A stretch of DNA of 60,764 nucleotides from contig JAKJBL010000001.1 in NCBI GenBank assembly GCA_022707005.1, positions 9,454 through 70,217 on the forward strand, written 5' to 3'. Source of the DNA: Bacillota bacterium (lineage in GTDB: Bacteria; Bacillota; Clostridia; Christensenellales; CAG-138). The notes under the pieces were generated by a model, which was given only the letters and a program-made list of their open reading frames with translations, was not told the origin of the DNA and made no database searches. Positions within the stretch are counted from its first letter, which is position 1. Each line of letters begins with the position of its first letter. Shown here piece after piece: positions 12,439 to 57,735 of the stretch. Position numbers and translations under genes: made by a program.

Positions 12439-12451
12439 TAAAGCAGCCCCC

Positions 12452-20900: not shown

Positions 20901-23288
20901 TTAGCTTGAATAGACTTTTTGTGCATAGTGAACTGCAGCCATTGCGTTTTTTCCATAAAAATCAGCTCCGATTTTTTTGGCATACCCCTCGCTGAGCACT
21001 GCGCCGCCAACCATAATCCTGCACTCAGGCGCGCATTTATGAAGCTGTGTAATTGTAGCTTCCATGCTTGGAACAGTTGTTGTCATAAGCGCGCTAAGTC
21101 CCGCAAGGCGCGCGTTGTTTAGAGCTACAGCTTCTAAAACAGCCTCTTTCGGAACGTCTTTGCCAAGGTCGATTACTCTGAAGCAGTAGTTTTCAAGCAG
21201 CGCCTTAACTATGTTCTTGCCTATATCGTGGACATCGCCCTCAACTGTTGCAAGCACAACAACGCCTTTATCCGCATTTTCGGATTTATCCATGCGCTTA
21301 TGCACTTGTTCAAAGGCTGCTTTTGCAGCTTCAGCGCTTAAGAGAAGCTGGGGTAAAAAGAGCGAGCCGTTTTCATATTCCATACCTATCTCATTAAGCG
21401 CTGGCATAAGCGCAGTTTCTATAATGCCAAGCGGCGCCTCAGTTTCAAGCGCACAGGCTGCAGCTTCTGCTGCCTCGGTTTTAAGGCCGTGTTTTAGCGC
21501 GTAATAAAGCGCTTCCTTTGGGGCTTTTGGTTTTTGCTTAGGCGCGTCAGGCGCGCTTTGGCTGCTGTAATGCTTAATAAACTCTGCGCATTTGGGGTCA
21601 TAGCCAAGGAGCAGAGCTGCGCTCTTAAATGCGTCAAGCATTTTAGCCGAATACGGGTTTATAAGCGCTGCGTCAAGGCCTGCGCCAAGCGCAAGCATAA
21701 GGAAGGCTGAGTTAAGAAGCTCTCTGTTGGGAAGTCCGAATGAAATATTAGAAACTCCGAGAATTGTTTTTACACCGAGCTCATTTTTAATAAGCCTTAA
21801 GGCTTCAAGCGTAACACGCGCATTGTCGTCCTCTGCGCTTTGTGCCATTGTAAGCGTATCGAATAAAAGGTCTTCTTTTTGTATGCCGTATTTATGTGCA
21901 GTTTCAACAATGCTCCTTGCTATTTTTAGGCGGCCCTCCGCAGTTTTTGGGATTCCGTTTTCATCAAGAGTAAGCGCAACTATTAGCCCGCCGTATTTTT
22001 TAACAAGCGGGAAGATTTGGCTCATGCTTTCCTTTTTGCCGTTAATAGAGTTTATAATCGGTTTTCCGTTATAGTGGCGCATGCTCAGTTCAAATGCTTT
22101 GGGGTTTGCGCTGTCAAGCTGCAACGGAAGCCCGCAAACGCTTTGAATGCTTTTAACTGTATCTAAAAGCACTTTTGGCTCGTCAAGCCCCGGAAGCCCC
22201 ACATTAACATCAAGCGCCTGCACGCCAAGCGCCTGCTGACAGAGCGCCTCTTTTAAAATATAGTCTGTTTCGCCAGCTAAGAGCGCCTGCTTTAAGGCAG
22301 GCTTGCCTGTTGGGTTAATGCGTTCGCCTATCAGTACAGGCGAGGCGCCAAAATATACAGCGCGTATGCCGCTTGAGGCAACTGTGAGCGCCCTGTATTC
22401 GGGCTTTTTAGGCAAAAGCCCCTTGCATGCAAGAACAAGCGCTTTAAGATGCGCAGGTGTAGTCCCGCAGCAGCCGCCTAAGAGCTGTGCGCCCTCAGCT
22501 GCAGCCTTATACATAAGCGCAGCGAATTCTTCAGGCGAAAGGTCGTAAACGGTTTTGCCGTTTTCAAACTTGGGCAGACCTGCGTTCGGGTTTAAAATGA
22601 GCGGAAGTGAAGAAAGCTTTCGAAGTTTTTTAAGCACTGGCAGCATCTCTAAAGGGCCTAAGCCGCAGTTTAAGCCAAGCGCATCAACCCCTAACCCTTC
22701 AAGCAGCGCAACAACAGCAGAAAGCTCTCCGCCTGTTAAAAGCCTTTCGTTTTTGTCAAGCGTTACAGTAGCGCATATAGGCAGGCTTGAACACTCCTTT
22801 GCAGCAAGCACAGCTGCCTTAAGCTCATAGGTATCTGACATTGTTTCAATAAGCACAAGGTCAGCGCCTGCTTTTGCGCCTGCGTAAATAGCTTCGCCAA
22901 AGAGCGAAACTGCCTCTTCAAACTTTAAGTCGCCAAGCGGCTCAAGGAGCTTCCCTGTAGGGCCTACATCAAAGGCAACGAATTTATGCTGCTGACCTTT
23001 GTGCGCTGCAATTGCTTCTTTAGCAAGCTCAACTGCCTTAGTTGAAATTTCGCTTACTGAATAGCCGCTGCCTGCAAGCTTGTGGCTGTTTGCGCCAAAG
23101 GTGTTTGTTTTAAGTATGTTGCAGCCTGCCTCAAGGTACGCTTCATGCACAGCGCGTACTGCTTCCGGCCTTTTTAAGCAGCAGCAATCAGGGATTTCGC
23201 CGGGCTTAAGCCCTGCTTGTTGGAGCATCGTGCCCATAGCGCCGTCAAAAAATAGCAGAGAAGTTAAAAGCAAATCACGAAAGTCCAT
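20901..23288 (-). CDS. metH: Cobalamin-dependent methionine synthase lacking the C-terminal activation domain
   Basis: 795 aa. It contains a homocysteine S-methyltransferase domain (FDGAMGT...GGCCGTTP), a pterin-binding domain, and a B12-binding domain with DVHDIGKNIV (DxHxxG). Confidence 0.9.
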   Translation of the reverse strand: MDFRDLLLTSLLFFDGAMGTMLQQAGLKPGEIPDCCCLKRPEAVRAVHEAYLEAGCNILKTNTFGANSHKLAGSGYSVSEISTKAVELAKEAIAAHKGQQHKFVAFDVGPTGKLLEPLGDLKFEEAVSLFGEAIYAGAKAGADLVLIETMSDTYELKAAVLAAKECSSLPICATVTLDKNERLLTGGELSAVVALLEGLGVDALGLNCGLGPLEMLPVLKKLRKLSSLPLILNPNAGLPKFENGKTVYDLSPEEFAALMYKAAAEGAQLLGGCCGTTPAHLKALVLACKGLLPKKPEYRALTVASSGIRAVYFGASPVLIGERINPTGKPALKQALLAGETDYILKEALCQQALGVQALDVNVGLPGLDEPKVLLDTVKSIQSVCGLPLQLDSANPKAFELSMRHYNGKPIINSINGKKESMSQIFPLVKKYGGLIVALTLDENGIPKTAEGRLKIARSIVETAHKYGIQKEDLLFDTLTMAQSAEDDNARVTLEALRLIKNELGVKTILGVSNISFGLPNRELLNSAFLMLALGAGLDAALINPYSAKMLDAFKSAALLLGYDPKCAEFIKHYSSQSAPDAPKQKPKAPKEALYYALKHGLKTEAAEAAACALETEAPLGIIETALMPALNEIGMEYENGSLFLPQLLLSAEAAKAAFEQVHKRMDKSENADKGVVVLATVEGDVHDIGKNIVKALLENYCFRVIDLGKDVPKEAVLEAVALNNARLAGLSALMTTTVPSMEATITQLHKCAPECRIMVGGAVLSEGYAKKIGADFYGKNAMAAVHYAQKVYSS

Positions 23289-23297
23289 GGTTTTCTC

Positions 23298-23960
23298 CTA
23301 ATTCAGGTTTTCTATTGCAGGCTTTTTATATAGGCAGGTTTTATTTAATGTGCAGCTGCTGCAGCCCCTGCTGTTTGTTGTAGGTTCTGAATTTGTTATG
23401 CCGATTATGGCAGTAATGGATTTCAGAGGGACAAGCATTGACTTTTCAGTGCAGGAAAGGCCGATTGTTTTTGCAGCATCTAAAATTCTAAGCAGTGTTT
23501 GCTGGTATGAAAGCGAAAAGTCACCGTATCCGGGCGAAAAGCGCTCACAAAGGCAGAGCCCTCTTTTTGCGTATGCTTGTCTAAGCTCATCCTGAACATT
23601 ATCAACAGCGCTCTCAAGCAAAGAGGCGGCGCATGCGTGCAGCACAAGACAGGCAGGCATATCTGTTTTTGAATACGCCTTTATCAGGGTATCTACGCCT
23701 GAGCCAAGGGTTGCGCAAAACAGCAGGCAATGCGTGCAGGTTTTAAGGTGGATGGAAAGCGCGCGGCTTTTTATGACATCGCCATTTAGCATTATGCTGT
23801 TTTCACTAACAGCAATCGGAAATTCGCGCAGGGTGTACTTAAAGGCAGCTGCGTTTTCAAGCGCAGGCAGGCAGGCGTTTAATATTGCTTCTGTCTGGCT
23901 GTCGGGCTCTAGTTGAGAAAAGCCGAGATACCTTAAAGCTTCCTTTTTGTTTACCCGCAT
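23298..23960 (-). CDS. Stand-alone methionine synthase activation (reactivation, AdoMet-binding) domain protein
   Basis: 220 aa with an RFSPGYGD motif. It lies between metF and metH and overlaps the metF 3' end by 10 nt. Confidence 0.7.
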   Translation of the reverse strand: MRVNKKEALRYLGFSQLEPDSQTEAILNACLPALENAAAFKYTLREFPIAVSENSIMLNGDVIKSRALSIHLKTCTHCLLFCATLGSGVDTLIKAYSKTDMPACLVLHACAASLLESAVDNVQDELRQAYAKRGLCLCERFSPGYGDFSLSYQQTLLRILDAAKTIGLSCTEKSMLVPLKSITAIIGITNSEPTTNSRGCSSCTLNKTCLYKKPAIENLN

Positions 23961-24832
23961 AATCTTACCTGCTGTATTATAAAACTTATGTTTTGCATGA
24001 TTGCCTTTGCAATTTCGGGTTTGTTCATTGTGTAAATATGGATGCCGCGCACGCCGTTTGCAAGAAGGTCAATAATTTGCTCTGTTGCATACGCTATGCC
24101 CGCCTGCTCCATTGCTTTTTGGTCGTCTCCGAACTTATCGAGGATGCTTAAAAAGCGCGGGGGAAGCGCAGTGCCGCTAAGCTCCACAATCCGCGAAATT
24201 TGTTTTTTATTCGTTACAGGCATAATCCCTGCAAGCACAGGTATGTTTATGCCATGCTCGCGGATTTTGTATAAAAACCTGTATAGAATATTATTGTCAA
24301 AAAACATCTGCGTTGTTAGAAAGTCGCATCCCGCATCTGCCTTCTCTTTTAAATGAAGGAGGTCCTCCTGTTGGCTTGCGCTTGAAACATGGCCTTCAGG
24401 GTAACACGCAGCTCCTATTGAAAATCCGCCAAAATTCTTTATAACATCTACAAGTTCGCTTGCATATTTAAAATGGCTGTTTCCTGTTAAGGCATAACCT
24501 TGAGGGATATCCCCCCTAAGCGCAAGAATATTCTTTATGCCTGCCTCCTTTAGGCGTGAAATAAGCCCAAGCACCTCATCTTTTGAACAGCAGACGCATG
24601 TAAGGTGCGCAAGCGCAACTGCGTTGCTTTGCTTTATGCACTCTGCCATTGCAAGCGTATTTTTTGAGTTGCTGCCGCTTGCGCCGCATGTAACGCTTAT
24701 AAAATCAGGGTTAAAAGCTGCGGTTGCTCCGACTAGCGCTTCTGCGCGCTCCATATTCCATTCGTCCTTAGGCGGGAACAGTTCACATGAAACTGTTGCC
24801 CTGTTGTTTTTAAGCATATCCCGAATAAACAC
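23951..24832 (-). CDS. metF: 5,10-methylenetetrahydrofolate reductase
   Basis: 293 aa. ATVSCELFPPK, HLTC and NILALRGD blocks are typical of MetF. It has a GTG start at 24832. Confidence 0.9.
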   Translation of the reverse strand: MFIRDMLKNNRATVSCELFPPKDEWNMERAEALVGATAAFNPDFISVTCGASGSNSKNTLAMAECIKQSNAVALAHLTCVCCSKDEVLGLISRLKEAGIKNILALRGDIPQGYALTGNSHFKYASELVDVIKNFGGFSIGAACYPEGHVSSASQQEDLLHLKEKADAGCDFLTTQMFFDNNILYRFLYKIREHGINIPVLAGIMPVTNKKQISRIVELSGTALPPRFLSILDKFGDDQKAMEQAGIAYATEQIIDLLANGVRGIHIYTMNKPEIAKAIMQNISFIIQQVRLCG

Positions 24833-25191: not shown

Positions 25192-26181
25192 ATGAAACAA
25201 AAAAAGATGGGGATTCTTGGTGCAGGCAGTATAGCTGTAAAAATGGCAGACACAATCAGGCAAATGGAGAGCGTAATTCCTTATGCAATAGCTTCCCGCG
25301 ACCTTAATAAGGCGGAAGCGTTTAAAGCTGCGCATGGTTTTGAAAAAGCCTACGGCTCATATATGGAGCTTTGGAGCGACCCTGAGGTTGACTTTATTTA
25401 TATTGCAACCCCTCACTCGCACCATGCGGAACAGGCAAAATGCTGCATCTTAGCCGGCAAGCCTGTGCTTTGTGAAAAGGCGTTTACAAAAACAAGCCAG
25501 GAGGCAAAAGAGGTGCTTGCGCTTGCAGCTGAGCGCAAGGTGCTTATAGCTGAGGCAATTTGGCCGCGCTATATGCCTATGGCGCAAACCCTCAAAGAAT
25601 TTGTAGAGAGCGGCACGCTTGGCAAAATAACATCCCTAAGCGCAAACCTCGGCTACAATGTGTTCAAAAAGCCGCGCGTAAATGACCCTGCGCTTGCAGG
25701 CGGCAGCCTGCTTGATGTTGGCGTATATACGCTCAACTTTGCCTCAATGCTTTTTGGCAATGACATAAAAAAGGTCACCTCCTCATGCGTTATGAGCGAA
25801 ACAGGCGTTGATACGCAAAATTCAGTCATTTTAGAATATTCAGATGGCAGAACGGCTACTCTTTACAGCAGCGTTGTTTCATTTACTGACCGCATGGGCG
25901 TGCTTTATGGAGAAAAGGGGTTTGCGATAGTAGATAATATTAACAACTTTGAGGCGCTTCGCGTTTATGATAAAGAGTATAAGCTCATAGAGCATTTAGT
26001 GCGGCCTGCTCAGATTACGGGCTTTGAATATGAGGTGCTCGCAATGCTTGAAGCTATGGAAAACGGCTGGCTTGAATGCAAGCAGATGCCGCATAGCGAA
26101 ATAATAAGGATTATGGAGCTTATGGATTCAATCAGGCATAGCTCTAAGTTTTACTATCCAGGAGAAGCACGGCAAAACTAA
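25192..26181 (+). CDS. Gfo/Idh/MocA family NAD(P)-dependent oxidoreductase
   Basis: 329 aa. An N-terminal Rossmann fold (MGILGAGSIAVKMA), the EKAF motif (LCEKAFT), and a C-terminal alpha/beta domain. SD GGGAGG. Confidence 0.85.
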   Translation: MKQKKMGILGAGSIAVKMADTIRQMESVIPYAIASRDLNKAEAFKAAHGFEKAYGSYMELWSDPEVDFIYIATPHSHHAEQAKCCILAGKPVLCEKAFTKTSQEAKEVLALAAERKVLIAEAIWPRYMPMAQTLKEFVESGTLGKITSLSANLGYNVFKKPRVNDPALAGGSLLDVGVYTLNFASMLFGNDIKKVTSSCVMSETGVDTQNSVILEYSDGRTATLYSSVVSFTDRMGVLYGEKGFAIVDNINNFEALRVYDKEYKLIEHLVRPAQITGFEYEVLAMLEAMENGWLECKQMPHSEIIRIMELMDSIRHSSKFYYPGEARQN

Positions 26182-26191
26182 GGCATATAGC

Positions 26192-26217
26192 AAAAAGCCG
26201 GAGAACCCGGCTTTTTT
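26192..26217. terminator. Bidirectional terminator between the convergent oxidoreductase and isomerase genes
   Basis: AAAAAGCCGG AGAAC CCGGCTTTTTT. Confidence 0.6.
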
Positions 26218-26231
26218 AATACAAGCTAAGG

Positions 26232-26921
26232 CTAACGTTTATACAAAGGATATTCGTTGCAAAGGAGCCTGTAGGGCGGCTCGTCCTCTTCAATTGTAGA
26301 AAAGCGGCCAACAGGCGCATGGAAGCGGTTGTCGGATACATCGTCGTTGCACATGGAGACTTCCCCCAAAAGCACAGGCCCATGCCCCTCTTCAGCTGAA
26401 AAGTCGTGGTATAAATACGGTTGAATAGTTATGCTCTCACCCGGGGCAAGGCGCACCTGTGTGCCTGCAGGCACATTGTATGAGCGGCCGTCCTGCCTTA
26501 TTGCAACGTCTGTGTTTAAAAAGCCCGCTCCGTCTTGTGTTGAGTTGTATACGCGTATAAGGATATTGCCGCCTGCCCGGTTGATTATATCCTCCATTTT
26601 AGAGAAGTGAAAATGCATAGGCGCGTACTGCCCTTCTTCAAGGTATAAAAGCTTCTCAGCATAGCTTTTGGGGTAGCGCGCTCTGTCTAAAGTGTTTCCG
26701 TTTCGCAGTGTTATAAGAGAAAACCCGATTTTAGAGAATTCGCCCAAGCCGTAGTCGGTAATATCCCATCCAAGCATATTCTCGCGCACTTCGTCGTATT
26801 CTTCGTTTTTAGCTGCCCATTCTTTTGGGGTAAAGCTGCAAAAAGGCGGCAGCGAAAACCTGTGCGTATAAGCCATTTCTTCCATTTTGCGGATTGCTTT
26901 GTTTATTTCTGAGCGTTTCAA
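26232..26921 (-). CDS. D-lyxose/D-mannose family cupin sugar isomerase
   Basis: KRSEINKAIRKMEE at the N-terminus and PMHFHFSKMEDIINRAGGN (a cupin metal site) resemble YdaE-type D-lyxose isomerases. I place the start at the TTG at 26921, 6 nt after AGGAGG. The ORF track extends to 26966. Confidence 0.75.
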   Translation of the reverse strand: MKRSEINKAIRKMEEMAYTHRFSLPPFCSFTPKEWAAKNEEYDEVRENMLGWDITDYGLGEFSKIGFSLITLRNGNTLDRARYPKSYAEKLLYLEEGQYAPMHFHFSKMEDIINRAGGNILIRVYNSTQDGAGFLNTDVAIRQDGRSYNVPAGTQVRLAPGESITIQPYLYHDFSAEEGHGPVLLGEVSMCNDDVSDNRFHAPVGRFSTIEEDEPPYRLLCNEYPLYKR

Positions 26922-27175
26922 GTATATCCTCCTGCTGCTCAATGTTTTTAAAAACCAAAAGCGCATAGCCTAGCCAAGGCGCGTTTTTTTGAGTATAGCC
27001 TTAAACTTCAGCTTTGTAAACAGCGCAAAAACAGCTTTATGCGCTAAAGCTTTAATCCGCAGGAATTTAAGCTTTGGTGGACAATGGAAAAGCTTATGAA
27101 TATAATTAGTTTAGCGCTTACACGCGCAGTTTGTCTGCTTTTGCGCTTGAGACAAGTCAGGGTAAAGGTGAAGTT

Positions 27176-27997
27176 ATGGGAAGTATAAACGCGGACAGTT
27201 TCGAGGCCTTTTGCGCAGCGCTCGAAGAAACGCCTGTGTCTCTCGAATTCTGCGAACGCTTCGATGAAAAAAGCAATATCTGGAACCTTTCGCGCCATAA
27301 GCACACTTATGTGGAGCTGCTTTATTTTCTTTACGGCGGAGTTGAAGTAACTGCGCAGGAACGCTCAATGGAAGCGACATTTTATGATGTAGTCGTATAT
27401 CCTCGAGACACCTATCATACTGAAAACCTGCAGTATGGCAAGCACAACGAGGTTATTTGCCTGTGGGTTGATATGGGCGGGCTTTCGCTGCCCGAGGTTA
27501 TTCATATTCAAGATAATAATGCTGAGCTTAAATGGCTGCTTGAGCAAATACACAGCGAGCACAAAAGCAGCGGGGCGTGCAGATACCTTATAGAATGCTA
27601 TATAAAAGCCGCACTTTTGCTTATTGCGAGGAAATACATGCATGAAAAATCCCCGCAGGATTCAATTAACCGGGTTATTCTATATATGCGCGACCACTTA
27701 AGCAGCGAAATAACTGTTGAAGAAATGGCGAGAATGATTTATGTAAGCAAATCCTACCTTAGCCGAATGTTTAAAAAGCGCACGGGCAAATCGTTAATGC
27801 AGTATTTGCGCGAGCTTCGCATACAAAGCGCAAAGGCAATGTTAGTGTCAACTGACGAGAGTATTGAGGATATTGCATATAAAACCGGCTTTAACTCCCC
27901 AAAATACTTTTGCAATACTTTCCGCAGGCATACAGGAGTACCTCCAAGGACATTCAGGCTTTCTGAGCGTTACAGCATAAACAAGCTTCAAAATTAA
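27176..27997 (+). CDS. AraC family transcriptional regulator (cupin sensor plus HTH)
   Basis: The C-terminus (ITVEEMARMIYVSKSYLSRMFKKRTGKSLMQYL...IAYKTGFNSPKYFCNTFRRHTGVPP) is a canonical AraC double HTH. I place the start at the ATG at 27176. Confidence 0.85.
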   Translation: MGSINADSFEAFCAALEETPVSLEFCERFDEKSNIWNLSRHKHTYVELLYFLYGGVEVTAQERSMEATFYDVVVYPRDTYHTENLQYGKHNEVICLWVDMGGLSLPEVIHIQDNNAELKWLLEQIHSEHKSSGACRYLIECYIKAALLLIARKYMHEKSPQDSINRVILYMRDHLSSEITVEEMARMIYVSKSYLSRMFKKRTGKSLMQYLRELRIQSAKAMLVSTDESIEDIAYKTGFNSPKYFCNTFRRHTGVPPRTFRLSERYSINKLQN

Positions 27998-28267
27998 AAT
28001 TCTGTTTATTAGGCAGATTACTTAGTTAAAAACCGTTTTTATTCAAAAGCTGCACTTCTTTTTCAATAATCTAAATATAAGCACGCCTGCATTTACGCGT
28101 ATTCAAGCAAAGCCGCCTGCTTAGCAGTTTAGGTTCACGAAAATGTACCATTAGTGCAAAGCCATGAGTTTACCTTTGACACGCCGTATAATAGAATAGT
28201 AATAGAAAGCAAGGGCTTATGCGCTATTGCTCCGAATCCGTCCAAGAGAAAGAGCAGGTATAAAAAA

Positions 28268-30646
28268 ATGAAAAGTTCAAACACATCAATAAACAAAATA
28301 AGCGAGCTTATGCAAAGCGAAAGAATAAGCGGCTTAAGAGCAAAGCTCTTTTTAGAGGAGCGCTATGCTTCAATAGAGCAGGCGCATATAGTAACCGAAG
28401 TATATAAGCAAAACCCGGGGCTGCCTGTAAACATACTCAGAGCAAAGGCGCTTAAAGCTGCGTTATTAGGTATGCAAATCCGCATAGACCAGGGCGAGCT
28501 TATTGTAGGCAACCGAACCGCAGGCATACGCGGCGGCGTCATTTTCCCCGAATCGGGCTTAAGCTGGGTGGATAATGAAATCGAAAACCTAAAGACCCGC
28601 CCGCAGGATAAGTTCGGTGTGCGTGCTGAGGATATTAAAGAATTCAGAGAAGAAATTCTTCCCTTCTGGAAGGGGCGTACGCTTGAAGACGTGCTTGACG
28701 AGCGCATTGGCGATGAAATGCGCCTGATAGGGAAGGTCGCAAAAATCAACCAGACTGACCATGCGCAGGGGCATATCTGCCCTGATACTAAGCTGTGGCT
28801 TAAAGAAGGGCCAAGCGGCATTTTGAAAAACGCAAAAGCGCATATAGCAGCAGCAAGCGGCGAACAGGCGCAGTTTTACGAGGGCATTGTGATTGCAATG
28901 GAAGGCGCGAGCGCCTTTATGAACAGATACGCTGAGCTTGCGTTCAGCTTAAAAGATTCGCCGGGCTATAAAGCTGAAGAAATGCTTGAGCTTTCGCGCA
29001 TTTGCGCAAAGCTTGCAAAAGAGCCGCCCGAAACCTTCCATGAGGCTGTGCAGTCTGCTTGGTTCCTCTATGTGCTTTTGCACATGGAGTCAAACGCCTC
29101 CTCGTTTTCGCCGGGGCGGATGGATCAGTACTTATACCCCTTTTACGAAAAAGACAAAAACGCGGGCAGGCTGAGCCTTGATAAAGCGCTTGAGCTTGTT
29201 CAATGCCTCTTTATAAAATTCAACCATATAGTTTATCTGCGAAGCTCAGGGAGCGCCCGCTATTTTGCAGGGTTCCCCATTGGCTTTAATGTTGCGCTCG
29301 GCGGGGTGAACAAGCAGGGTGAAGACGCCTCAAATGAGCTTAGCTATCTTTTCCTGCGCGCACAGGAGCATCTTGGGCTCCCGCAGCCAAACCTTTCCGC
29401 AAGGGTGCATAAGGACTCGCCCGAATACTTTTTATATAGATGCAGCCAGGTAATAGGCAGGGGGAGCGGGATGCCCCAGCTCTTTAATGACGAGGCAGTC
29501 ATACCTGCGCTCATTAACAGAGGCATAAGCAAAGAAGATGCGCTTAACTACGCAATAGTCGGCTGCGTTGAGCTTACCACAATGGGCAACAGCCTTGGCT
29601 GGAGCGACGCTGCAATGTTCAACATGGTCAAGGCGCTTGAGCTTGCGCTAAATGACGGAGTATGCCTATTAAGCGGCAAGCAGATGGGCGCAAAGACCGG
29701 CACACTTGCGGAGTTTAAAACTTATGAAGACGTTGAAGCTGCCTTAATGAAGCAAATCGACTTCTTTTTCAGCCGCATGATAAGCTGCTGCGAAATAGTT
29801 GAAAAAGCACATGCGGAACTTCTGCCTTCGCCTTTGCTCTCCTCAGTTATTCAAGGCTGCATGGAAAAGGGGCTTGATGTAACTGCAGGCGGCGCTGTTT
29901 ATAATCTTTCCGGTATACAGGCAATTCAATGCGCAAACATTGAAGACAGTTTGGCTGCCCTAAAAACGCTCGTCTTCGAGCAAAAGCGGTTTTCGCCGCA
30001 GGCTGTGCATGCTGCACTTGTCAATAACTTTGAAGGCGAGGAGCTTATGCGCCTTACGCTTTTAAATAAGGCGCCAAAGTATGGCAATGATGTAGAGTGG
30101 GTTGATAATATCGCAAACAAGTGGATTGGCATTTTTTCTAAAAAACTTGAACAATATACGAACGCACGCGGCGGGATTTACCACGCAGGGCTTTATACGG
30201 TTTCCGCGCATGTGCCTATGGGGCAGAATGTGGGCGCAACGCCAGATGGCAGGAGCAGCCGCGAACCGCTTGCAGACGGCGGTATGTCCGCAGTGTACGG
30301 CAGAGATATGAAGGGCCCTACTGCGCTTTTAAAGTCGGTTTCGAGAGTTGACTCGCACTTTGGCAGCAATGGTACGCTTTTAAACATGAAGTTCCTGCCG
30401 GATTTATTCATGCATGAGGACGGGCTTAAGAAGTTCGTAAGCTTAATCCGTGCGTTTGTTGAGCTTAAGATAATACATGTGCAGTTTAATGTTGTTCGCC
30501 TTGAGGACCTTTTAAAGGCGCAGGAAAACCCTGAGCAATACAGAAGCCTAACGATAAGGGTTGCCGGGTATACAGCCTACTTTACGGAGCTTGCAAGAGA
30601 CCTCCAAAACGAGATTATTAAGCGCACAAGCTATGCAAGCCTATGA
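28268..30646 (+). CDS. Glycyl radical enzyme of the PFL2/dehydratase-lyase (1,2-eliminase) type; substrate unknown
   Basis: It carries the C-terminal glycyl radical motif TIRVAGYTAYF (Gly codon at 30566-30568) and the Cys loop IVGCVELT (a GCVE motif with the catalytic Glu seen in eliminating GREs). About 792 aa from the ATG at 28268; the ORF track starts at a GTG at 28154. Confidence 0.9.
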   Translation: MKSSNTSINKISELMQSERISGLRAKLFLEERYASIEQAHIVTEVYKQNPGLPVNILRAKALKAALLGMQIRIDQGELIVGNRTAGIRGGVIFPESGLSWVDNEIENLKTRPQDKFGVRAEDIKEFREEILPFWKGRTLEDVLDERIGDEMRLIGKVAKINQTDHAQGHICPDTKLWLKEGPSGILKNAKAHIAAASGEQAQFYEGIVIAMEGASAFMNRYAELAFSLKDSPGYKAEEMLELSRICAKLAKEPPETFHEAVQSAWFLYVLLHMESNASSFSPGRMDQYLYPFYEKDKNAGRLSLDKALELVQCLFIKFNHIVYLRSSGSARYFAGFPIGFNVALGGVNKQGEDASNELSYLFLRAQEHLGLPQPNLSARVHKDSPEYFLYRCSQVIGRGSGMPQLFNDEAVIPALINRGISKEDALNYAIVGCVELTTMGNSLGWSDAAMFNMVKALELALNDGVCLLSGKQMGAKTGTLAEFKTYEDVEAALMKQIDFFFSRMISCCEIVEKAHAELLPSPLLSSVIQGCMEKGLDVTAGGAVYNLSGIQAIQCANIEDSLAALKTLVFEQKRFSPQAVHAALVNNFEGEELMRLTLLNKAPKYGNDVEWVDNIANKWIGIFSKKLEQYTNARGGIYHAGLYTVSAHVPMGQNVGATPDGRSSREPLADGGMSAVYGRDMKGPTALLKSVSRVDSHFGSNGTLLNMKFLPDLFMHEDGLKKFVSLIRAFVELKIIHVQFNVVRLEDLLKAQENPEQYRSLTIRVAGYTAYFTELARDLQNEIIKRTSYASL

Positions 30647-31557
30647 ATACAGCCAATATCTTTGATATAAAGCGGTTTGGTACAAATGACGGTAGCGGCA
30701 TACGCACTGTTGTGTTTATTAAAGGCTGCCCTCTAAGCTGCCTTTGGTGCCATAACCCTGAAGGCCTTTTCAAAGAAAATAGAATCTGGTGCATGAACAA
30801 CCTTTGCATAGGGTGCGAAAGCTGCATTGCAGCATGCGAAGCTAAGGCTATAACCCGCCTCGAAAGGGGAGTGCGGGTTGACCATGACGTCTGCACGCAT
30901 TGCGGCGCGTGCCTCAATGTGTGCCCAACAGGCGCTTTGCGCGTTGACGGCATAAAAATGAGCGTTGCCGAGGTAATGGCTGAAATTGAAAAAGACAGAG
31001 TCTTTTACGGCAGGGAGGGCGGCGTAACTTTAAGCGGCGGAGAGTGCACAGCAGAGCCTGAGTTTTCGCTCGAGCTTCTTAAAGAATGCAAAAAGGCGGG
31101 CATTCATACTGCAATTGAAACCTGTTTATTTGCAAAGCCCGAAATAATGGCCGCTTTTATGGAGGCTGCCGATTTAATTCTTGCAGACCTTAAACTTTTT
31201 GACCCCAAGCTTCATAAAGAGGCGACAGGTGTTGACAATGCACTCATTCTTTCAAACTTTGAAATGCTCGCAAAAGGCGCAACGCCTGTTATAGTTAGAA
31301 TCCCGATGATTCCGGGCTATACTGCCTCTGTTTCAAATGTAAGCCAGATAGCCGAATTTGTGGCTTCAAAAAACCCGAAGATTCCGATAGAGCTTCTTAA
31401 TTATAACCCGCTTTGCGAAGGCAAATATTATGCTTTGGGCAAGGAATTTATAAACTGTACGGAGCCGTTTTCGCAGAAAGAAATGGAAGTTTTCGCTTGT
31501 GCTGCAAGAGCGCACGGGCTAAATGTAAGTTATGAAGGCATGAAGGAGCAAAAATGA
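30643..31557 (+). CDS. Glycyl radical enzyme activating enzyme (radical SAM, with two auxiliary 4Fe-4S motifs)
   Basis: CPLSCLWCHNPE (CX3CX2C), plus CIGCESCIAAC and CTHCGACLNVCP. An ATGA overlap joins it to the GRE stop. Confidence 0.9.
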   Translation: MNTANIFDIKRFGTNDGSGIRTVVFIKGCPLSCLWCHNPEGLFKENRIWCMNNLCIGCESCIAACEAKAITRLERGVRVDHDVCTHCGACLNVCPTGALRVDGIKMSVAEVMAEIEKDRVFYGREGGVTLSGGECTAEPEFSLELLKECKKAGIHTAIETCLFAKPEIMAAFMEAADLILADLKLFDPKLHKEATGVDNALILSNFEMLAKGATPVIVRIPMIPGYTASVSNVSQIAEFVASKNPKIPIELLNYNPLCEGKYYALGKEFINCTEPFSQKEMEVFACAARAHGLNVSYEGMKEQK

Positions 31558-33323
31558 GCACAATAAGCAGATTTTTAGAAATTTCGAATAAAGGCGGCAG
31601 CGTTTACATGCACGATGTAAAAGCCGCGTTTAATAAAGAGCACGAAAAGTTTACGCTTGTGCTGCATTTGCTAAACGGCAGCTTAAGGGTGTTTGATATT
31701 CCTATGCCTGAAGCTAAAACAAAAGAAGAAGAGCGTTTCCTGCAGGATTACTTTTACGGGCGCGTATATAATATCCTTTCAATGCTTGGCGGGGTTAAAA
31801 TGGATGTATACTGCGGGAGCAGTAAATACTTTAAAGACCTTGCAGAAGGGCTTTTAACAGCGTTTGGCGTTAATGACCCAAGGCTTAAGCGCGAAGGCTA
31901 TGCAAAATGCCTTAATGTGGCTGACAGAATGAACCTTGCCCTTGGCGCAGCGCAGTTTAGCTTTGAGCTTTTTGATGGCGCAGCAAATATAAAAGAACAG
32001 CCTGAAGAAATCTTTCTTACTGATGTTGTTTCCGGCTTTAAAAAGGCGGCAGATAGGGCAATGCACGGCCGCTTTACAGGTATAGATATAGGCGGCACGG
32101 ATATTAAGCTTGTAGGCGTAAATAACGGCAGGCTCGACCATATAAAAGAGTATGACTGGAACCCGTCCTCTTTTAAAACAATTGACTGTCTTACTTCTGT
32201 TGTGCTTTTGCTTGCGCGCATGAGCAGGGCGCTTTTAAGCCTGCCTATAGAGCTAAGCCAAGAAGCGCAAAAGCTTCGCAAGGCTGTGCTTGAAAAAGAC
32301 GAGCCTTTTGAGGCAATGCAAAGGGATGTTGTTCGACTTGAAACGCTTGCAGGCGAACTTAAAGGCGTTGACGGCATTGGCGTGAGCTTCCCTGATGTAG
32401 TTGTGCGCGATAGAATAGTTGGCGGCGAAACGCATAAAACAAAGGGCGTGCGCGAGCATTCTAAAGATTACGAAAGCGAATTTAAGTCGCTCACAGACCT
32501 TAACTGCAGCCTTAGTGAATACTGCAGCGCAAACGGCAAAGTGCATATTACAAATGACGGGCCAATGTCTGCATATACTGCAGCTGTTGAACTTGCGCAT
32601 TCTGATAAAGCTTTGTCTGTAAGCGCAGGGATGTTTGCGCATTCGCTTGGAACAGAGCTTGGCACAGGCTGGGTTGATGAGGAGGGCAAAGTGCCCGAAT
32701 ACCCGCTTGAGGTATATAACTGCATAATAGATTTAGGCAACGCGCCTGCAGCAGGCTACGAAGCAGCTGATGTCAGGAGCTTGAACAACTTTAACACAGG
32801 GTTGGCAGGCACGCTTCAGCGCTTTACAGGTCAAAGCGGCGCTTTCCGTTTAGCTGAGGAATACTATAAATTAACAGCTCCCAATGAATATGCTGCGCTT
32901 TTTGAAAAGGGCTTTATAACAAAGACCGAAAAAGGGTTAATCGCCTCTATTGCGCCTGTTGATATGCGCAAGGCGTTTCTCGAACACCTTATGGCGCAGG
33001 CGGAGCAGGGAATGCCTGAAGCAATGGAGATTTTCCGCACTATCGGCAAATGCCTTGCTGCAACATGGCTTGAAACAGACGAGGTGCTTAGCCCTAAGTG
33101 CAAATCGAGAGTTTTATTCGGAAGGTTTGTGAAGAAGAACGCGGTTTTTGCGCTTATGAATGAAGGCGCAAAAGAGCTTTTGCCAAACTTAACTCTTTTA
33201 GCTGCTGATGAGAGCTTAGCATATACTAAGCTTATGTGTGAGCTTAGAGACAGCAAAGAATATACAGTAGCCCAGTTCGGGCAGGCAGTCGGCTCGGTTT
33301 ATTTTGCAGCTTCCATGCTTTAG
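31554..33323 (+). CDS. ASKHA-superfamily (sugar kinase/ROK-like) protein with an uncharacterised N-terminal extension of about 170 aa
   Basis: A GIDIGGTDIKLVGV phosphate-1 motif starts at about residue 175. Later DGPMSAYTAA and GTELGTGWV blocks fit actin-like ATPase folds. There is no ROK Cys zinc motif. An ATGA overlap joins it to the activase stop. Confidence 0.55.
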   Translation: MSTISRFLEISNKGGSVYMHDVKAAFNKEHEKFTLVLHLLNGSLRVFDIPMPEAKTKEEERFLQDYFYGRVYNILSMLGGVKMDVYCGSSKYFKDLAEGLLTAFGVNDPRLKREGYAKCLNVADRMNLALGAAQFSFELFDGAANIKEQPEEIFLTDVVSGFKKAADRAMHGRFTGIDIGGTDIKLVGVNNGRLDHIKEYDWNPSSFKTIDCLTSVVLLLARMSRALLSLPIELSQEAQKLRKAVLEKDEPFEAMQRDVVRLETLAGELKGVDGIGVSFPDVVVRDRIVGGETHKTKGVREHSKDYESEFKSLTDLNCSLSEYCSANGKVHITNDGPMSAYTAAVELAHSDKALSVSAGMFAHSLGTELGTGWVDEEGKVPEYPLEVYNCIIDLGNAPAAGYEAADVRSLNNFNTGLAGTLQRFTGQSGAFRLAEEYYKLTAPNEYAALFEKGFITKTEKGLIASIAPVDMRKAFLEHLMAQAEQGMPEAMEIFRTIGKCLAATWLETDEVLSPKCKSRVLFGRFVKKNAVFALMNEGAKELLPNLTLLAADESLAYTKLMCELRDSKEYTVAQFGQAVGSVYFAASML

Positions 33324-33333: not shown

Positions 33334-34167
33334 CTAAGTAGTATTCAAGCGGATTTCGCTGCCTGTAAAAAGGCGCAAAAGGCTATCGCCCATAACACCT
33401 TTAAGCGTATTATAAGCTTCTTCGCCTGTGCAATGGCCTGTATAGTAAACTGCGCCAGTGTTTTTTAGGTATTCGCCTACCTGGTTTATAAGCTCTTTGG
33501 GCTCGCTTTGCCCAAGCGATGGGTTGTAAAGATGAAAGCCTCCAAACACATAGTTTAAAGACCTGCCCTTAAGACCTATGAATGTATTAAGGATGTTTAC
33601 AATCCCTCTGTGGCTGCAGCCCGCAAAAAGGGTTGTGCATTCGCCTTCGCGGATAACGAGGTTTTGTTCATGCAGAAATATGTCTTCAACTGTTGTGTTT
33701 TCGTGCTCCATAAGTAAAGTCTTGTTTGCGTTTGAACAAAGCGCACTGCCCTCAACATTTGAAAACACCTCAATGCCCTCTGCAATAAAGAACCTGTCTG
33801 CTGTAAAAACGAGCCGCCTGTTCTCCTTAAGTTCAGCTTCAAGGCCTATATATTTAAGGCTTCCGTCAGGGCGCAAAGAATAATAGTTGTTAAACGCCTT
33901 ATGGTGAACGAAAACTTCCGCTTTTTTATTGTGCTTTAAAAATTCGCGCAAGCCGCCACCATGGTCATAATGCCCGTGTGAAATAACTAAAAAGTCGATA
34001 TCTTTAATATTAACGCCGAGTTTTTTCGCATTTTCGAGGAACAAGCCGCTTGCCCCTAAATCACATAAGAGCTTATACTTGCCTGTTTCTATATAAAGGC
34101 TTAGCCCGTGCTCAGTGTTGAAGCGGTTTGAAACTGCTGTGTTTTCAACTAAAGTTTTAACTACCAT
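33334..34167 (-). CDS. MBL-fold metallo-hydrolase (COG1237-like)
   Basis: LVISHGHYDHGGGL (an HxHxDH-type motif). 277 aa. It is the last gene of the NifX-like operon. Confidence 0.8.
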   Translation of the reverse strand: MVVKTLVENTAVSNRFNTEHGLSLYIETGKYKLLCDLGASGLFLENAKKLGVNIKDIDFLVISHGHYDHGGGLREFLKHNKKAEVFVHHKAFNNYYSLRPDGSLKYIGLEAELKENRRLVFTADRFFIAEGIEVFSNVEGSALCSNANKTLLMEHENTTVEDIFLHEQNLVIREGECTTLFAGCSHRGIVNILNTFIGLKGRSLNYVFGGFHLYNPSLGQSEPKELINQVGEYLKNTGAVYYTGHCTGEEAYNTLKGVMGDSLLRLFTGSEIRLNTT

Positions 34168-34183
34168 GAGATTCCTCCGGGTA

Positions 34184-35050
34184 TTAGCCTGAAGCCTTTA
34201 GGCTTTCAATAAGCTTTTTGAGCTTTTCCCACATGCGTTTTATTTCTGCTGCTGCTGCGCTTTGTGCAAATGAGGTTATAGGTTGAAGGCTGTTTATAGA
34301 GGCAATTACAGTTTCGTCAAATGGAATCTTTCCAATAACAGGGATATTCTCCGATAAAGCATATTCTTTAATTTGCTCTGTTAAATCCGGGTTAATGTCA
34401 TACTTGTTTATGCATAATGCTGTTTGTATGTTGAAATGTCTCGCTACACCTACGACCCGCTTTAAATCACTAATGCCTGAAATTGTCGGTTCTGTAACAA
34501 TAAGCGCAAGGTCCGCAGCAGTTATTGACGAAATTACAGGGCAGCCAATACCCGGAGAGCCGTCAAGAATGATAAGCTCATCGTCATTAGCTTGTGAGCG
34601 CGCATTTTTGCGCAGCTTTGTTATAAGCATGCCTGAGCCGTCGCTGCCCGAAGCCATCTTAGCGCGAAAAATCAGACCTTCGTGTGTTTTAGTCGTGTAA
34701 ATATCCGCGTCCTTTAGTTTTATAAGAGTGATTGCATCATTCGGGCAGGCAATAACGCAGGCGCCGCAGCCCTCGCAGCTTATTTCATCTACAACATGGT
34801 CCTTCATAGCGTCAAACCTGCATACGGCATCGCAAATACCGCAGCTTATGCAGCGGCTTTCATCAACCTTAGCCTTGCTTAACGCATAGAAGTCTTCTGT
34901 GTGAAGGTTGCGCCCCTTATAATAAAGCGAAAGGTTTGGTGCATCCACATCGCAATCCGCAATCAGGCGCGTACCGCTTAAAGCTTGAAGCGCTGCTGTA
35001 ATCATGGTTTTGCCTGTGCCGCCTTTGCCGCTTATTATAACTAATTCCAT
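34184..35050 (-). CDS. MinD/ParA-type P-loop ATPase with an inserted 2x[4Fe-4S] ferredoxin domain (COG1149-like)
   Basis: ISGKGGTGKT is followed by CISCGICDAVC and CEGCGACVIACP. Confidence 0.8.
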   Translation of the reverse strand: MELVIISGKGGTGKTMITAALQALSGTRLIADCDVDAPNLSLYYKGRNLHTEDFYALSKAKVDESRCISCGICDAVCRFDAMKDHVVDEISCEGCGACVIACPNDAITLIKLKDADIYTTKTHEGLIFRAKMASGSDGSGMLITKLRKNARSQANDDELIILDGSPGIGCPVISSITAADLALIVTEPTISGISDLKRVVGVARHFNIQTALCINKYDINPDLTEQIKEYALSENIPVIGKIPFDETVIASINSLQPITSFAQSAAAAEIKRMWEKLKKLIESLKASG

Positions 35051-35874
35051 GCAAATGCCTCCTTAAGCTGCTTAGATAGCGCCTCAAACGCCAGCTTGTA
35101 TTCTGGAAGCTCAAGCAGGAGCTTCCCTTTTGAATACGCGATTGCAGCTTCTTTGCTAAAGGGAATAACGCCTAAAAGGTTTATTCCGTTTTTGCCGCAA
35201 TACTCAGTAATGAGGCTGTCTTCGCCTCTGCTTTTATTTACGAGCGCTGCAAAAGGCAGCCCGACATGGTTAAGAAGCTCTACTGCGATTTCCATATCGT
35301 TAAGCCCAAATACGGTAGGCTCAGTAACTATGAGCGCTGCGTCTGCGTGGCGGAGCGTTGTAACCGCATTGCATGATGTACCCGGCGCGCAGTCGAGGAT
35401 TGCATCTTCAGAGCTTTTTAGTTGCTTTAGCAAATGCTTTATTACAGGCACAGCCATAGGTTCGCCTATATTGAGCACACCGCGGGCAGCAAATATGCCG
35501 TTCGACCTGCCCTTTTCAACAACGCCCACAGCCCTTTTGGCAAAGGTAATTGCGCCCTCGCTGCATGCAAGAGAGCAGGCATGGCAGCCATGGCAAAGTT
35601 CCTTAAAGAGCAGAATCTCCTTTTTTGTAGCTGCGAGCGCGTTGAACTGGCAGGCGGTCACGCAATCTTTGCACAATGTGCAGAGTGAATAGTCAACGCA
35701 AGGATAGTCAACAAGCGTTTCTTCAGCTGAAACAGCCATCGGGTTAAGGAATATAAAGCCGTTTGGCTCTTCCACATCGCAATCATAATAGGCACAGTTT
35801 AAAGTATACGCAAGATTTACTGCAAGCGTAGTTTTCCCAGTGCCTCCCTTGCCGCTTAAAATGCACAGCTTCAC
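35041..35874 (-). CDS. MinD/ParA-type P-loop ATPase with an inserted 2x[4Fe-4S] ferredoxin domain (a paralogue of the downstream gene)
   Basis: LSGKGGTGKTT is followed by CTLCKDCVTAC and CHGCHACSLAC. The GTG start overlaps the NifX-like stop (GTGA). Confidence 0.8.
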   Translation of the reverse strand: MKLCILSGKGGTGKTTLAVNLAYTLNCAYYDCDVEEPNGFIFLNPMAVSAEETLVDYPCVDYSLCTLCKDCVTACQFNALAATKKEILLFKELCHGCHACSLACSEGAITFAKRAVGVVEKGRSNGIFAARGVLNIGEPMAVPVIKHLLKQLKSSEDAILDCAPGTSCNAVTTLRHADAALIVTEPTVFGLNDMEIAVELLNHVGLPFAALVNKSRGEDSLITEYCGKNGINLLGVIPFSKEAAIAYSKGKLLLELPEYKLAFEALSKQLKEAFAWN

Positions 35875-36260
35875 TTATTCTCAAAGCCCCCTCTGAAGCC
35901 TTTTCGCATGCCTGCGTGCGCATCTCCCGCTTCGTCAAGCGGGCTGAGCCTGCCTGCTTTATAAAGCTCAACTGCTTCGCTCACCAGCACAGCTGAAGTG
36001 CGAAACGCCCTTATACCTGCACCTTTTAGCACATTATAGGCGTTTGGGCCTAAATTGCCCGTTAGAACAACCTCTGCGCCTAAGTCGATAATTTGCTGGG
36101 ATGCAGCGATTCCAGCGCCTCCGCTTGCGCTTTGCGCCTTGTTTTCAATAAATGTGTAAGTCTCGGTCTTTGGCTCATAAAGCGCAAAATACTCACACCT
36201 TCCAAAGCGCGGGTCGCTAAGAGCTGACTCTGTGTTGCCTGTGCTTGAAATTGCAATCAT
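35871..36260 (-). CDS. NifB/NifX/NafY-like 'dinitrogenase iron-molybdenum cofactor biosynthesis' domain protein
   Basis: 129 aa. MIAISSTGN...DPRFGRCEYFALYE...GAGIAASQQIIDLGAEVVLTGNLGPNAYNVLKGAGI is typical of the PF02579 family. Confidence 0.8.
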   Translation of the reverse strand: MIAISSTGNTESALSDPRFGRCEYFALYEPKTETYTFIENKAQSASGGAGIAASQQIIDLGAEVVLTGNLGPNAYNVLKGAGIRAFRTSAVLVSEAVELYKAGRLSPLDEAGDAHAGMRKGFRGGFENK

Positions 36261-36264
36261 TATA

Positions 36265-36636
36265 TTATTCCTCCTTTTGATTTTGCCATCTTCTGCCTCC
36301 GTGGCGATGCCTGTGGCAGCTGCCGCAGTTTTCTAACTGACCGTCACAAAGTATGTACTCCCCTCCGCCAATAAACAGCGCTTTGCCATTAACAAGCGCA
36401 TCTGACAGCTTTCTTCTTGCAGCATCGTATATGCCCTGCACTGTTGAGCGCGCTATGCCCATGCGCAAGGCGCATTCCTCCTGCGTGAGCCGTTCAAGGT
36501 CAATAAGGCGGATTGTCTCGTATTCGTCAATCGTCATGTTCACTGTTGGAAAAGCTTCAGGAACTGTGCCAAGCGGCCCGAAGCGGGCATTATTTGGCAG
36601 CGCGCAGACTCTTCTCCATTTTCTCGGTCGCGGCAT
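36265..36636 (-). CDS. DUF134 (UPF0251) predicted DNA-binding protein
   Basis: MPRPRKWRRVCALPNNARFGP...EYETIRLIDLERLTQEECALRMGIARSTVQGIYDAARRKL is the DUF134 signature with a sigma-70 region-4-like HTH. The tail is Cys/His-rich (CGSCHRHRH). Confidence 0.75.
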   Translation of the reverse strand: MPRPRKWRRVCALPNNARFGPLGTVPEAFPTVNMTIDEYETIRLIDLERLTQEECALRMGIARSTVQGIYDAARRKLSDALVNGKALFIGGGEYILCDGQLENCGSCHRHRHGGRRWQNQKEE

Positions 36637-46043: not shown

Positions 46044-46055
46044 GGAGGCGTACAA

Positions 46056-57626: not shown

Positions 57627-57735
57627 ATCTTAAAATAACTTAAGGCAGCGCCCGCTTTTTGTATGCGGCAGCAATGCCCTTTTATTGTGTTGCCTTAAGG
57701 CTTGTGATATATTGGTATACAAAGGGGGCGTGTAT

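Follow-up and report, generated by a model that had tools for sequence, protein, structure and literature searches.

The DNA considered here, called the window throughout, is a stretch of 60,764 nucleotides (nt) from a Bacillota bacterium of the lineage CAG-138 (Clostridia; Christensenellales), at positions 9,454 to 70,217 of contig JAKJBL010000001.1 in assembly GCA_022707005.1. Between its positions 25192 and 33323 lie genes for an AraC-family regulator, a glycyl radical enzyme (GRE), the radical S-adenosylmethionine (SAM) activase of that enzyme and a 589-amino-acid (aa) protein with the predicted fold of a sugar kinase, together with a cupin gene, transcribed divergently from the AraC gene, and the gene of an oxidoreductase of the Gfo/Idh/MocA family (Gfo; Table 1). 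The unit of regulator, GRE, activase and putative kinase is read here, with moderate confidence, as a variant of "anhydroglycolysis" that is fed by a kinase and is independent of the phosphotransferase system (PTS).

Organization of the Locus

The six genes, the two motifs of the GRE and the ATGA overlaps at both junctions (GRE stop with activase start, activase stop with kinase start) were found as a preliminary description of this DNA had given them. The AraC gene probably starts at the ATG at 27176, which is preceded by the ribosome-binding site AAAGGTGAAG, and AraC homologues are 271–274 aa long; for the GRE, whose mechanically called open reading frame (ORF) begins at a GTG at 28154, homologue lengths of 784–790 aa favor the ATG at 28268. 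The activase carries the motif CPLSCLWC at residue 29 and a ferredoxin-like insert for two clusters, and the gene of the 589-aa protein as a whole spans 31554–33323 on the plus strand. Two promoter-like sequences, both of them consensus matches only, lie between the cupin and AraC genes: TGGACA-17-TATAAT on the plus strand (27078–27106; 11 of 12 consensus positions), upstream of the AraC gene, and TTTACA-17-TATACT on the minus strand (27020–26992; 10 of 12).

Table 1. Features of the locus, in coordinates of the window
Feature	Position	Strand	Basis or remark
Gfo/Idh/MocA NAD(P) oxidoreductase	25192–26181	+	Pfam PF01408 and PF22725; candidate 1,5-anhydro-D-fructose reductase, accessory
Lyx_isomer cupin (D-lyxose/D-mannose isomerase family)	26232–26966	−	PF07385, 317 bits; accessory
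Divergent promoter-like region, cupin/AraC intergenic	26992–27106		Consensus matches only
AraC-family regulator	27176–27997 (mechanical ORF 27131–27997, TTG at 27131)	+	PF12833 and PF00165
GRE of PflD-like lineage, predicted 1,5-anhydrohexitol-6-phosphate ring-opening C-O lyase	28268–30646	+	PF02901, 692 bits; PF01228
Radical-SAM activase of the GRE	30643–31557	+	TIGR02494, 311 bits (cut-off 174); Pfam Radical_SAM and Fer4
N-terminal alpha/beta domain (~168 aa) of the 589-aa protein	31554–32057	+	AlphaFold2 model; no recognizable fold relative
ROK-like ASKHA core in the 589-aa protein; anhydrohexitol 6-kinase using ATP, by prediction	32058–33323	+	Foldseek, motifs

A Glycyl Radical Enzyme of the PflD-Like Lineage

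The glycyl motif RVAGYTAYF lies at GRE residue 764 (nt 30557–30583; PF01228 at 99.5 bits) and the Cys loop GCVE at residue 432 (nt 29561–29572). With an RVxG[FWY] motif, a barrel like that of pyruvate formate-lyase (PFL), the Cys loop and a cognate radical-SAM activase, the protein belongs to the GRE superfamily. It is not a PFL proper, as had been recognized in the preliminary description: its loop reads G-C-V-E rather than Cys-Cys, and the model TIGR01255 gives 159 bits against a cut-off of 994.

Among solved structures in the Protein Data Bank (PDB), the GRE is closest to Escherichia coli PflD (8yjo, 653 bits) and its homologue 8id0 (624 bits), followed in third place by glycerol dehydratase (1r8w, 607 bits), with YbiW at 453 bits. 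The recently deposited entry 9rco, a "Glycyl radical protein" of 816 aa that bears no functional name, gives 540 bits. In a distance-based neighbor-joining tree with one outgroup, the clade of the window enzyme (groups A and B, described below) is sister to E. coli PflD and 8id0 and falls outside the YbiW clade. At alignment columns where both PflDs agree and differ from glycerol dehydratase, the window enzyme has the PflD residue in 73 cases and the dehydratase residue in 26; the same count against YbiW gives 93 and 25. PflD and YbiW are the closest characterized relatives of the GRE, loosely related as they are, and the enzyme is not the orphan for which it had been taken. Like PflD (E. coli b3951, 8YJO; homologue 8ID0; activase PflC), it combines a PFL-like fold, the glycyl motif and a CxE loop with a dedicated activase encoded immediately downstream.

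The primary source for the PflD and YbiW lyases is reportedly Ma et al., J Am Chem Soc 2024. PflD and YbiW open the rings of 1,5-anhydromannitol-6-phosphate and 1,5-anhydroglucitol-6-phosphate, respectively, as found in 2024 (PMC13450708, section 5.7). Both yield 1-deoxy-fructose-6-phosphate, which FsaA or FsaB cleaves to glyceraldehyde-3-phosphate and hydroxyacetone, and in the E. coli pathway the phosphorylated substrate is supplied by the PTS (PMC13450708, section 5.7; PMC12441222, section 5.1). The two nearest characterized enzymes are ring-opening isomerases rather than eliminases or dehydratases, and to have framed the GRE as an eliminase was mistaken or overstated.

A Putative ROK-Type Kinase Recognized by Its Fold

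Searches of Pfam (even at E ≤ 10), NCBIfam and the PDB sequences returned nothing usable for the 589-aa protein, for which structure prediction alone suggested an identity; public annotations of its relatives read either "hypothetical" or "predicted NBD/HSP70 family sugar kinase." With 45 homologues as input, AlphaFold2 gave a model with a predicted local distance difference test score (pLDDT) of 92, and from about residue 170 to the end Foldseek aligns it with ROK glucokinase, N-acetylmannosamine (ManNAc) kinase and N-acetylglucosamine (GlcNAc) kinase (E-values to 1e-10; target-normalized TM-scores 0.67–0.71). The motifs DIGGTD (residue 178), NDG (334) and GTELGTG (366) are invariant, D178-G-G-T182 and N334-D335 without exception across 45 sequences, and an hhalign comparison with ROK kinases (E = 1.6e-4, probability 50%) places the ATP-binding and catalytic motifs in register.

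The protein thus shares with the ROK hexose kinases (glucokinase 2QM1, ManNAc kinase 2YHW, GlcNAc kinase 7P7W) the ASKHA fold and the aligned DxGGT phosphate-1, catalytic ND and GTxxGxG motifs, but is only 12–16% identical to them. The Pfam ROK signature PF00480 is absent at E ≤ 10, and so is the Zn-binding CxCGxxGC/ExGH motif: the aligned segment reads PLEVYNCIIDLG, without the Cys cluster and with E-V-Y-N-C in place of ExGH. Further differences are some 50 extra helical residues inserted into the first ASKHA lobe (residues ~222–270, unaligned) and the N-terminal domain of 168 residues, which on its own gives a confident AlphaFold2 model (pLDDT 87) with no fold relative in the PDB (best Foldseek match E = 0.059, TM-score ≤ 0.3). 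No DNA-binding domain was detected in the protein. By fold, and with its ATP-binding and catalytic motifs intact, the protein is predicted to be a ROK-type hexose kinase, which sharpens its earlier designation as ASKHA kinase-like. An archerase-like ATPase of the HgdC type, suggested by a weak match to 1hux (E = 0.86) and by PF01869 flags, was rejected because the fold and motifs are those of ROK kinases. The family is small and closed: of 1.84 billion representative clusters, 301 match at E ≤ 1e-3, and the matches do not extend into ordinary ROK proteins.

Two Genomic Contexts of Related Loci

A scan of one genome per species recovered 80 loci with GREs 57–89% identical to that of the window, in which ORFs were called, clustered and annotated. 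Group A comprises the 29 loci, the window included, that encode the ~590-aa protein; group B comprises the 51 that lack its gene (Table 2). Group A extends over Bacillota, Spirochaetota, Planctomycetota, Chloroflexota, Anaeromyxobacter and one actinomycete, that is, at least six phyla. The GREs of group B that lie beside an Fsa aldolase or a PTS are 57–61% identical to that of the window, and group B loci also encode PTS components IIA, IIB and enzyme I, a PRD regulator, DeoR and a Cof-type phosphatase, a layout that follows the logic of E. coli pflD-frw-fsaB; the closest relatives of the window enzyme that lack the kinase thus stand, like PflD, in a context of PTS and Fsa. Compared with the PflD system, the window has no Frw-type PTS, fsaB or gldA and instead carries the AraC regulator and the ROK-like kinase in a set of translationally overlapping genes. 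Because group A has genes of the ATP-binding cassette (ABC) transporter and the kinase where PTS and Fsa genes are absent, the ABC importer and the kinase would occupy the place of the PTS.

Table 2. Numbers of loci that carry each gene near the GRE
Gene	Group A (29 loci)	Group B (51 loci)
~590-aa protein, order GRE-activase-kinase	29	0
AraC regulator	16	1
Sugar-binding protein, ribose-type ABC	14	0
ABC ATPase	16	2
ABC permease	19	2
Shikimate-dehydrogenase-like gene	14	4
PTS IIC (FrwC-type)	0	11
Fsa aldolase	0	22

The conserved partners of the GRE are the activase, the ASKHA protein (29/29), the AraC regulator, the ribose-type ABC transporter and the shikimate-dehydrogenase-like gene. The AraC orthologue stands directly upstream of the GRE, in the tabulated number of group A loci by clustering and in about 20 by tblastn. 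The shikimate/quinate-dehydrogenase-like gene, which scores 226 bits on the aroE model TIGR00507 and so exceeds its cut-off of 200, directly adjoins the GRE-activase-kinase unit wherever it was counted in group A (e.g., L002, L003, L005, L008, L010, L012, L020, L023, and L027); it is absent from the window, which carries a Gfo gene in its stead. A Pfam census of 90 unlabelled group A neighbors added further sugar-binding proteins and oxidoreductases of the GMC family, and no aldolase stood among the 25 most frequent Pfam families that it listed. The GMC oxidoreductases (5 of the 90) and HbpS-like proteins recur near the operon in L023, L039, L048 and other non-Bacillota loci, where they may serve an oxidative interconversion of anhydro sugars.

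Active-Site Residues and the Order of the Steps

The residues of the GRE were compared at ten positions of the glycerol dehydratase active site, taken from the literature on 1R9D rather than from the sugar and phosphate contacts of PflD. At all ten (H169, S278, S279, G339, C433, E435, L436, D447, Y643, and V645) the window enzyme, all group A and group B enzymes and both PflDs are identical, whereas six of the residues are changed in YbiW-type enzymes and four in glycerol dehydratase. Against YbiW (E. coli b0823; 8ID7, 8YJN) the differences are S278/H, G339/Y, L436/V, D447/G, Y643/S and V645/I (window/YbiW), so that the YbiW signature H282, Y344, G456, S662, I664 is replaced by S, G, D, Y and V. 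The B12-independent glycerol dehydratase of Clostridium butyricum (1R8W/1R9D) shares the Cys/Glu loop and the conserved His164, Ser282, Asp447 and Tyr640, but its H281, Y339, P436 and S642 correspond, on the same list of positions from the 1R9D literature, to S278, G339, L436 and V645 in the window, and the gene context is a sugar kinase with a regulator, not a glycerol or propanediol pathway. The window pair C433/E435 aligns with C431/E433 of 8id0, the CxE pair of PflD, whose catalytic residues are Cys431 and Glu433 in 8ID0 numbering (PMC13450708).

Group A and group B GREs are told apart consistently by no more than seven alignment columns. A loss of the phosphate site in the kinase-linked subgroup was sought among these columns, but all of them are uncharged; R32, R83, K159 and R679, basic residues that group B conserves and glycerol dehydratase lacks, are all retained in group A. 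A PTS necessarily delivers a phosphorylated sugar. Since the two groups differ at uncharged columns and share these Arg and Lys residues, the alignment argues that group A GREs also bind a phosphorylated substrate, and the kinase would therefore act before the GRE.

Co-occurrence with YbiW Modules

Many group A operons, those of Christensenellaceae among them, stand next to a true YbiW orthologue (L004, L006, L007, L009, L011, L027, L016, L020, and L051). Three of these orthologues were compared with E. coli YbiW and are 50–59% identical to it, and those of L152 and L162 are 72–74% identical, with an Fsa aldolase gene between the two modules. Besides the YbiW orthologue itself, the module encodes a short activase, a kinase of the ROK type, an HAD phosphatase like YbiV and a 7-bladed lactonase-like protein, with cupin and Gfo variable; in E. 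coli, YbiW is accompanied by YbiY, the phosphatase YbiV and FsaA. These two-GRE superclusters occupy about 1–9 kb of L004, L006, L007, L009, L011 and L027, and about 10–13.4 kb of L152 and L162. The window, whose GRE is predicted to share reaction class and product with YbiW, has no YbiW-type gene itself. In L092, the kinase adjoins a YbiW-like GRE rather than a PflD-like one.

Group A enzymes pair with YbiW orthologues as PflD pairs with YbiW in E. coli. Of all the evidence, this parallel speaks most strongly for assigning the mannitol-configured substrate to the group A enzyme.

Proposed Pathway

Taken together, the observations point, with the moderate confidence expressed above, to kinase-fed anhydroglycolysis, a variant for which a search of the literature found no description. 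The substrate is very probably a sugar derivative, as the preliminary description had supposed, and the anaerobic anhydrohexitol route on which that description had merely speculated is now the best-supported reading. What the analysis shows directly are the gene identities, motifs, fold, synteny and lineage, whereas the substrate, the activity of the kinase and its place before the GRE, the part played by Gfo and everything downstream are inferred. In this pathway a free 1,5-anhydrohexitol would enter the cell. The most likely candidate is 1,5-anhydro-D-mannitol, which the Gfo-type reductase might also form intracellularly from 1,5-anhydro-D-fructose. The 589-aa ROK-like kinase, not described before, would phosphorylate the anhydrohexitol on O6 at the expense of ATP, and the activase would place the glycyl radical on Gly767 of the GRE. 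The thiyl radical of Cys433 would then take a hydrogen from C2 of the sugar phosphate while Glu435 deprotonates the C2 hydroxyl, and cleavage of the ring C-O bond would give 1-deoxy-fructose-6-phosphate. The remainder of the scheme is modeled on E. coli: an Fsa-type aldolase encoded elsewhere would split this product into glyceraldehyde-3-phosphate and hydroxyacetone. The AraC regulator would act as activator of the operon.

Points Against Kinase-Fed Anhydroglycolysis

Several results weigh against this pathway. With E. coli PflD the GRE shares 43.5% identity, with 8id0 41.6%, with glycerol dehydratase 39.1% and with YbiW 35.6%, so that PflD is barely ahead of the dehydratase, and E. coli PflD and glycerol dehydratase are themselves 42.5% identical; similarity alone therefore does not settle the function of the GRE, and with identities so low the PflD assignment draws on context and aligned residues, not on close similarity. 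The ten aligned positions, moreover, belong to the dehydratase pocket. Tight clustering with a defined GRE, which the preliminary description had held to speak against its own proposal, was not found at 43.5%, yet the aligned active-site residues are shared. The best NCBIfam equivalog, the PflD model NF007437, gives 763 bits, under its cut-off of 1109. Because group B GREs, in their PTS and Fsa context, also reach just 765–777 bits on this model, falling below the cut-off does not set the window enzyme apart from enzymes of canonical context, and the cut-off appears to be narrower than the functional context.

The genes needed around the proposed steps are also sparse. A search of the whole 60.7-kb window found no Fsa/TalC aldolase, no sugar transporter for the pathway and no hydroxyacetone reductase (GldA), nor any shikimate dehydrogenase, ROK or sugar ABC genes, and at the 28 related group A genome loci no Fsa gene lies within 10 kb. 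The shikimate-dehydrogenase-like enzyme, frequent as its gene is, has no place in the pathway as published.

Nor is the kinase family exclusive to GREs. Scanning metagenome contigs with the kinase alignment gave 57 loci with at least 1 kb of upstream sequence, and an activase or GRE gene lies directly upstream of the kinase gene in 38 of these; the rest lack one, and their kinase genes neighbor purine genes, a ROK gene or the gene of a Glk-type glucokinase. The family is mainly, not exclusively, GRE-linked, and it may include general sugar kinases. GRE-less homologues stand directly downstream of a Glk-family glucokinase gene or beside URO-D-like and ROK-like genes (L118, L119, L143, L157, and L160; L138–L140), and on termite-gut contigs L105, L106, L109, L110 and L117 homologues of 41–43% identity lie by VanW-like, polysaccharide-deacetylase, purN, purD and purC genes. 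L109 and L110 also encode a third type of GRE, 33% identical to that of the window and 38–39% identical to both YbiW and glycerol dehydratase.

Alternative Interpretations

The chemistry and gene layout might be those described above while the substrate is another sugar phosphate, such as 1,5-anhydroglucitol-6-phosphate, another anhydro- or deoxy-hexitol phosphate or a phosphorylated cyclitol, which would make a third specificity beside PflD and YbiW. In favor of this, the clade branches deeply and separately, has only about 42% identity with PflD and stays below the PflD equivalog cut-off, and one of the seven columns that separate groups A and B (642) adjoins the substrate-contacting Tyr643. 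The shikimate/quinate-dehydrogenase-like gene (14 of 29 loci) and the GMC oxidoreductases (in 5) hint at redox chemistry of cyclic polyols outside the published scheme, and the kinase of L092 adjoins a YbiW-like GRE. The agreement with PflD at all ten aligned positions nevertheless speaks against another substrate, as do the Fsa aldolases, linked to the sister subgroup and also present in L152 and L162, which make fructose-configured products; the stereochemistry known for Fsa fits only the glucitol or mannitol epimers. The co-occurrence with YbiW orthologues argues in turn for a mannitol-specific partner. A different sugar phosphate is the strongest of the alternatives but rather unlikely.

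An altered order of steps, with ring opening of the free anhydrohexitol by the GRE first and phosphorylation of the resulting 1-deoxyfructose by the kinase second, would suit the gene order (GRE, activase, kinase), the import of an unphosphorylated substrate by the ABC transporter and the presence of fructokinases among ROK-type enzymes. It is improbable in view of the alignment: the kinase-linked and PTS-linked GREs differ at seven uncharged columns only and have in common all the conserved Arg and Lys residues that set them apart from glycerol dehydratase, and since the PTS substrate is phosphorylated, both subgroups should bind a phosphorylated one.

A further possibility, that the GRE conventionally dehydrates a small polyol, as glycerol and diol dehydratases do, with the kinase-like protein as a regulator or ATPase accessory, draws on the third-ranked PDB match (1r8w, 607 bits, 39% identity), the non-catalytic regulators of the ROK family (ROK repressors are among the Foldseek matches) and a weak match to BadF/BadG/BcrA/BcrD (PF01869) in a few kinase homologues, but is very improbable given that dehydratase H281, Y339 and S642 have become S, G and V, that no microcompartment or aldehyde-processing genes were found among the 39 scanned ORFs of the window (see below), that close relatives stand beside a PTS and an Fsa aldolase, and that the 589-aa protein has invariant ATP-binding and catalytic-Asp motifs and no detected DNA-binding domain.

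The Gfo and Cupin Genes as Accessories

Within kinase-fed anhydroglycolysis, the Gfo and cupin genes are recurrent accessories and not core components. They had been presented as telling partners of the GRE, yet each has homologues in only 6 of the 29 loci of group A, and no group B locus (of 51) carries the cupin; the preliminary description had named a lack of conservation of these flanking genes as speaking against its proposal, and with conservation that is merely sporadic the objection holds by half. The pair recurs by the kinase in the unrelated metagenome contigs L132 and L134, the cupin also in L150, and in Christensenellaceae both genes belong to the adjacent YbiW-type module.

The best solved relative of the Gfo protein is dimeric dihydrodiol dehydrogenase (2o48, 154 bits), which is a known 1,5-anhydrofructose reductase (PMC12441222). 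The Sinorhizobium 1,5-anhydrofructose reductase (AFR) structures 2GLX and 4KOA belong to the same family but give only 66–69 bits, a likeness at family level, and no equivalog model was passed. Given these matches to 2o48 and the AFRs, reduction of 1,5-anhydrofructose to an anhydrohexitol is a reasonable lead for the role of Gfo, which is a candidate 1,5-anhydro-D-fructose reductase. The cupin gives 260 bits on NCBIfam NF051472 (cut-off 350) and 205 bits against PDB 3kmh; that it epimerizes a keto-anhydrohexitol at C2 is speculation.

The Wider Window

The window, which encodes SpoIVA, SpoIIP, Gpr, Rnf, an [FeFe]-hydrogenase, formate-tetrahydrofolate ligase and MetH/MetF, is part of the chromosome of a spore-forming strict anaerobe. 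The "sugar-catabolic neighborhood" ascribed to the operon amounts to the Gfo and cupin genes, since the wider flanks consist of housekeeping genes. On the upstream side these are a Crp/Fnr-type regulator (20141–20812) and, at 20901–24832 on the minus strand, a split methionine synthase: the 795-aa MetH has no activation domain, the next gene encodes a protein of 220 aa that weakly matches the Met_synt_B12 activation domain, and MetF comes after it. On the downstream side, a five-gene cluster at 33334–36636 on the minus strand converges on the operon and is conserved in L001; it encodes an MBL-fold protein, two tandem MinD/ParA-type ATPases with 4Fe-4S ferredoxin inserts, a NifX-like Nitro_FeMo-Co protein and DUF134, and a P-type ATPase also belongs to this flank. 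The locus shows no sign of recent insertion: the GC content (0.45–0.48) is unremarkable, and the Oscillospiraceae metagenome-assembled genome L001, whose GRE is 89% identical, is syntenic over the whole 22 kb compared, flanks included.

The Pfam scan of the window covered 39 ORFs, all but one of at least 150 aa; ORFs below 120 aa and nine longer non-overlapping ones (9807–13339; 44785–46856 by RnfC/RnfD; 57685–58185; 59902–60531) lay outside it. Among the 39 there was no microcompartment shell protein, aldehyde dehydrogenase, sulfite reductase or pyrroline-5-carboxylate (P5C) reductase, in agreement with the preliminary description. Two window ORFs have no Pfam match, one of 588 aa (54535–56301, plus strand) and one of 303 aa (39970–40881, minus strand); the former may be the periplasmic adaptor of an exporter, placed as it is between an ABC ATPase (53792–54508) and a MacB/FtsX permease (56298–57626).

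Significance

Anhydroglycolysis was first described in 2024, and only in the PTS-fed form of enterobacteria. Diet and glycogen are the sources of 1,5-anhydrohexitols. If the reading is right, a version fed by a kinase, in strict anaerobes represented in gut, sediment, digester and symbiont metagenomes, would widen the known anaerobic use of these compounds. A broader proposal, held tentatively and doubted about as readily as believed, is that the 589-aa protein is the first member of a new, small kinase family for anhydro sugars, and that this family makes up, together with an AraC regulator, an ABC importer and oxidoreductases for ring ketones (shikimate-dehydrogenase-like, Gfo, GMC), PTS-independent anhydroglycolysis across Bacillota, Spirochaetota, Planctomycetota, Chloroflexota, Myxococcota and Actinomycetota, with the Gfo and cupin pair funneling 1,5-anhydrofructose into the mannitol-configured substrate or epimerizing anhydroglucitol to it. 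A bolder form of the proposal gives this GRE lineage a third, undescribed substrate. The variant raises the concrete question of how the linked shikimate-dehydrogenase-like, Gfo and cupin enzymes act on anhydro sugars. Kinase, GRE and activase are also simple soluble parts for the PTS-free engineering of 1,2-propanediol production, and a protein family that is now annotated as hypothetical and has no Pfam model would, if the reading is right, acquire a function.

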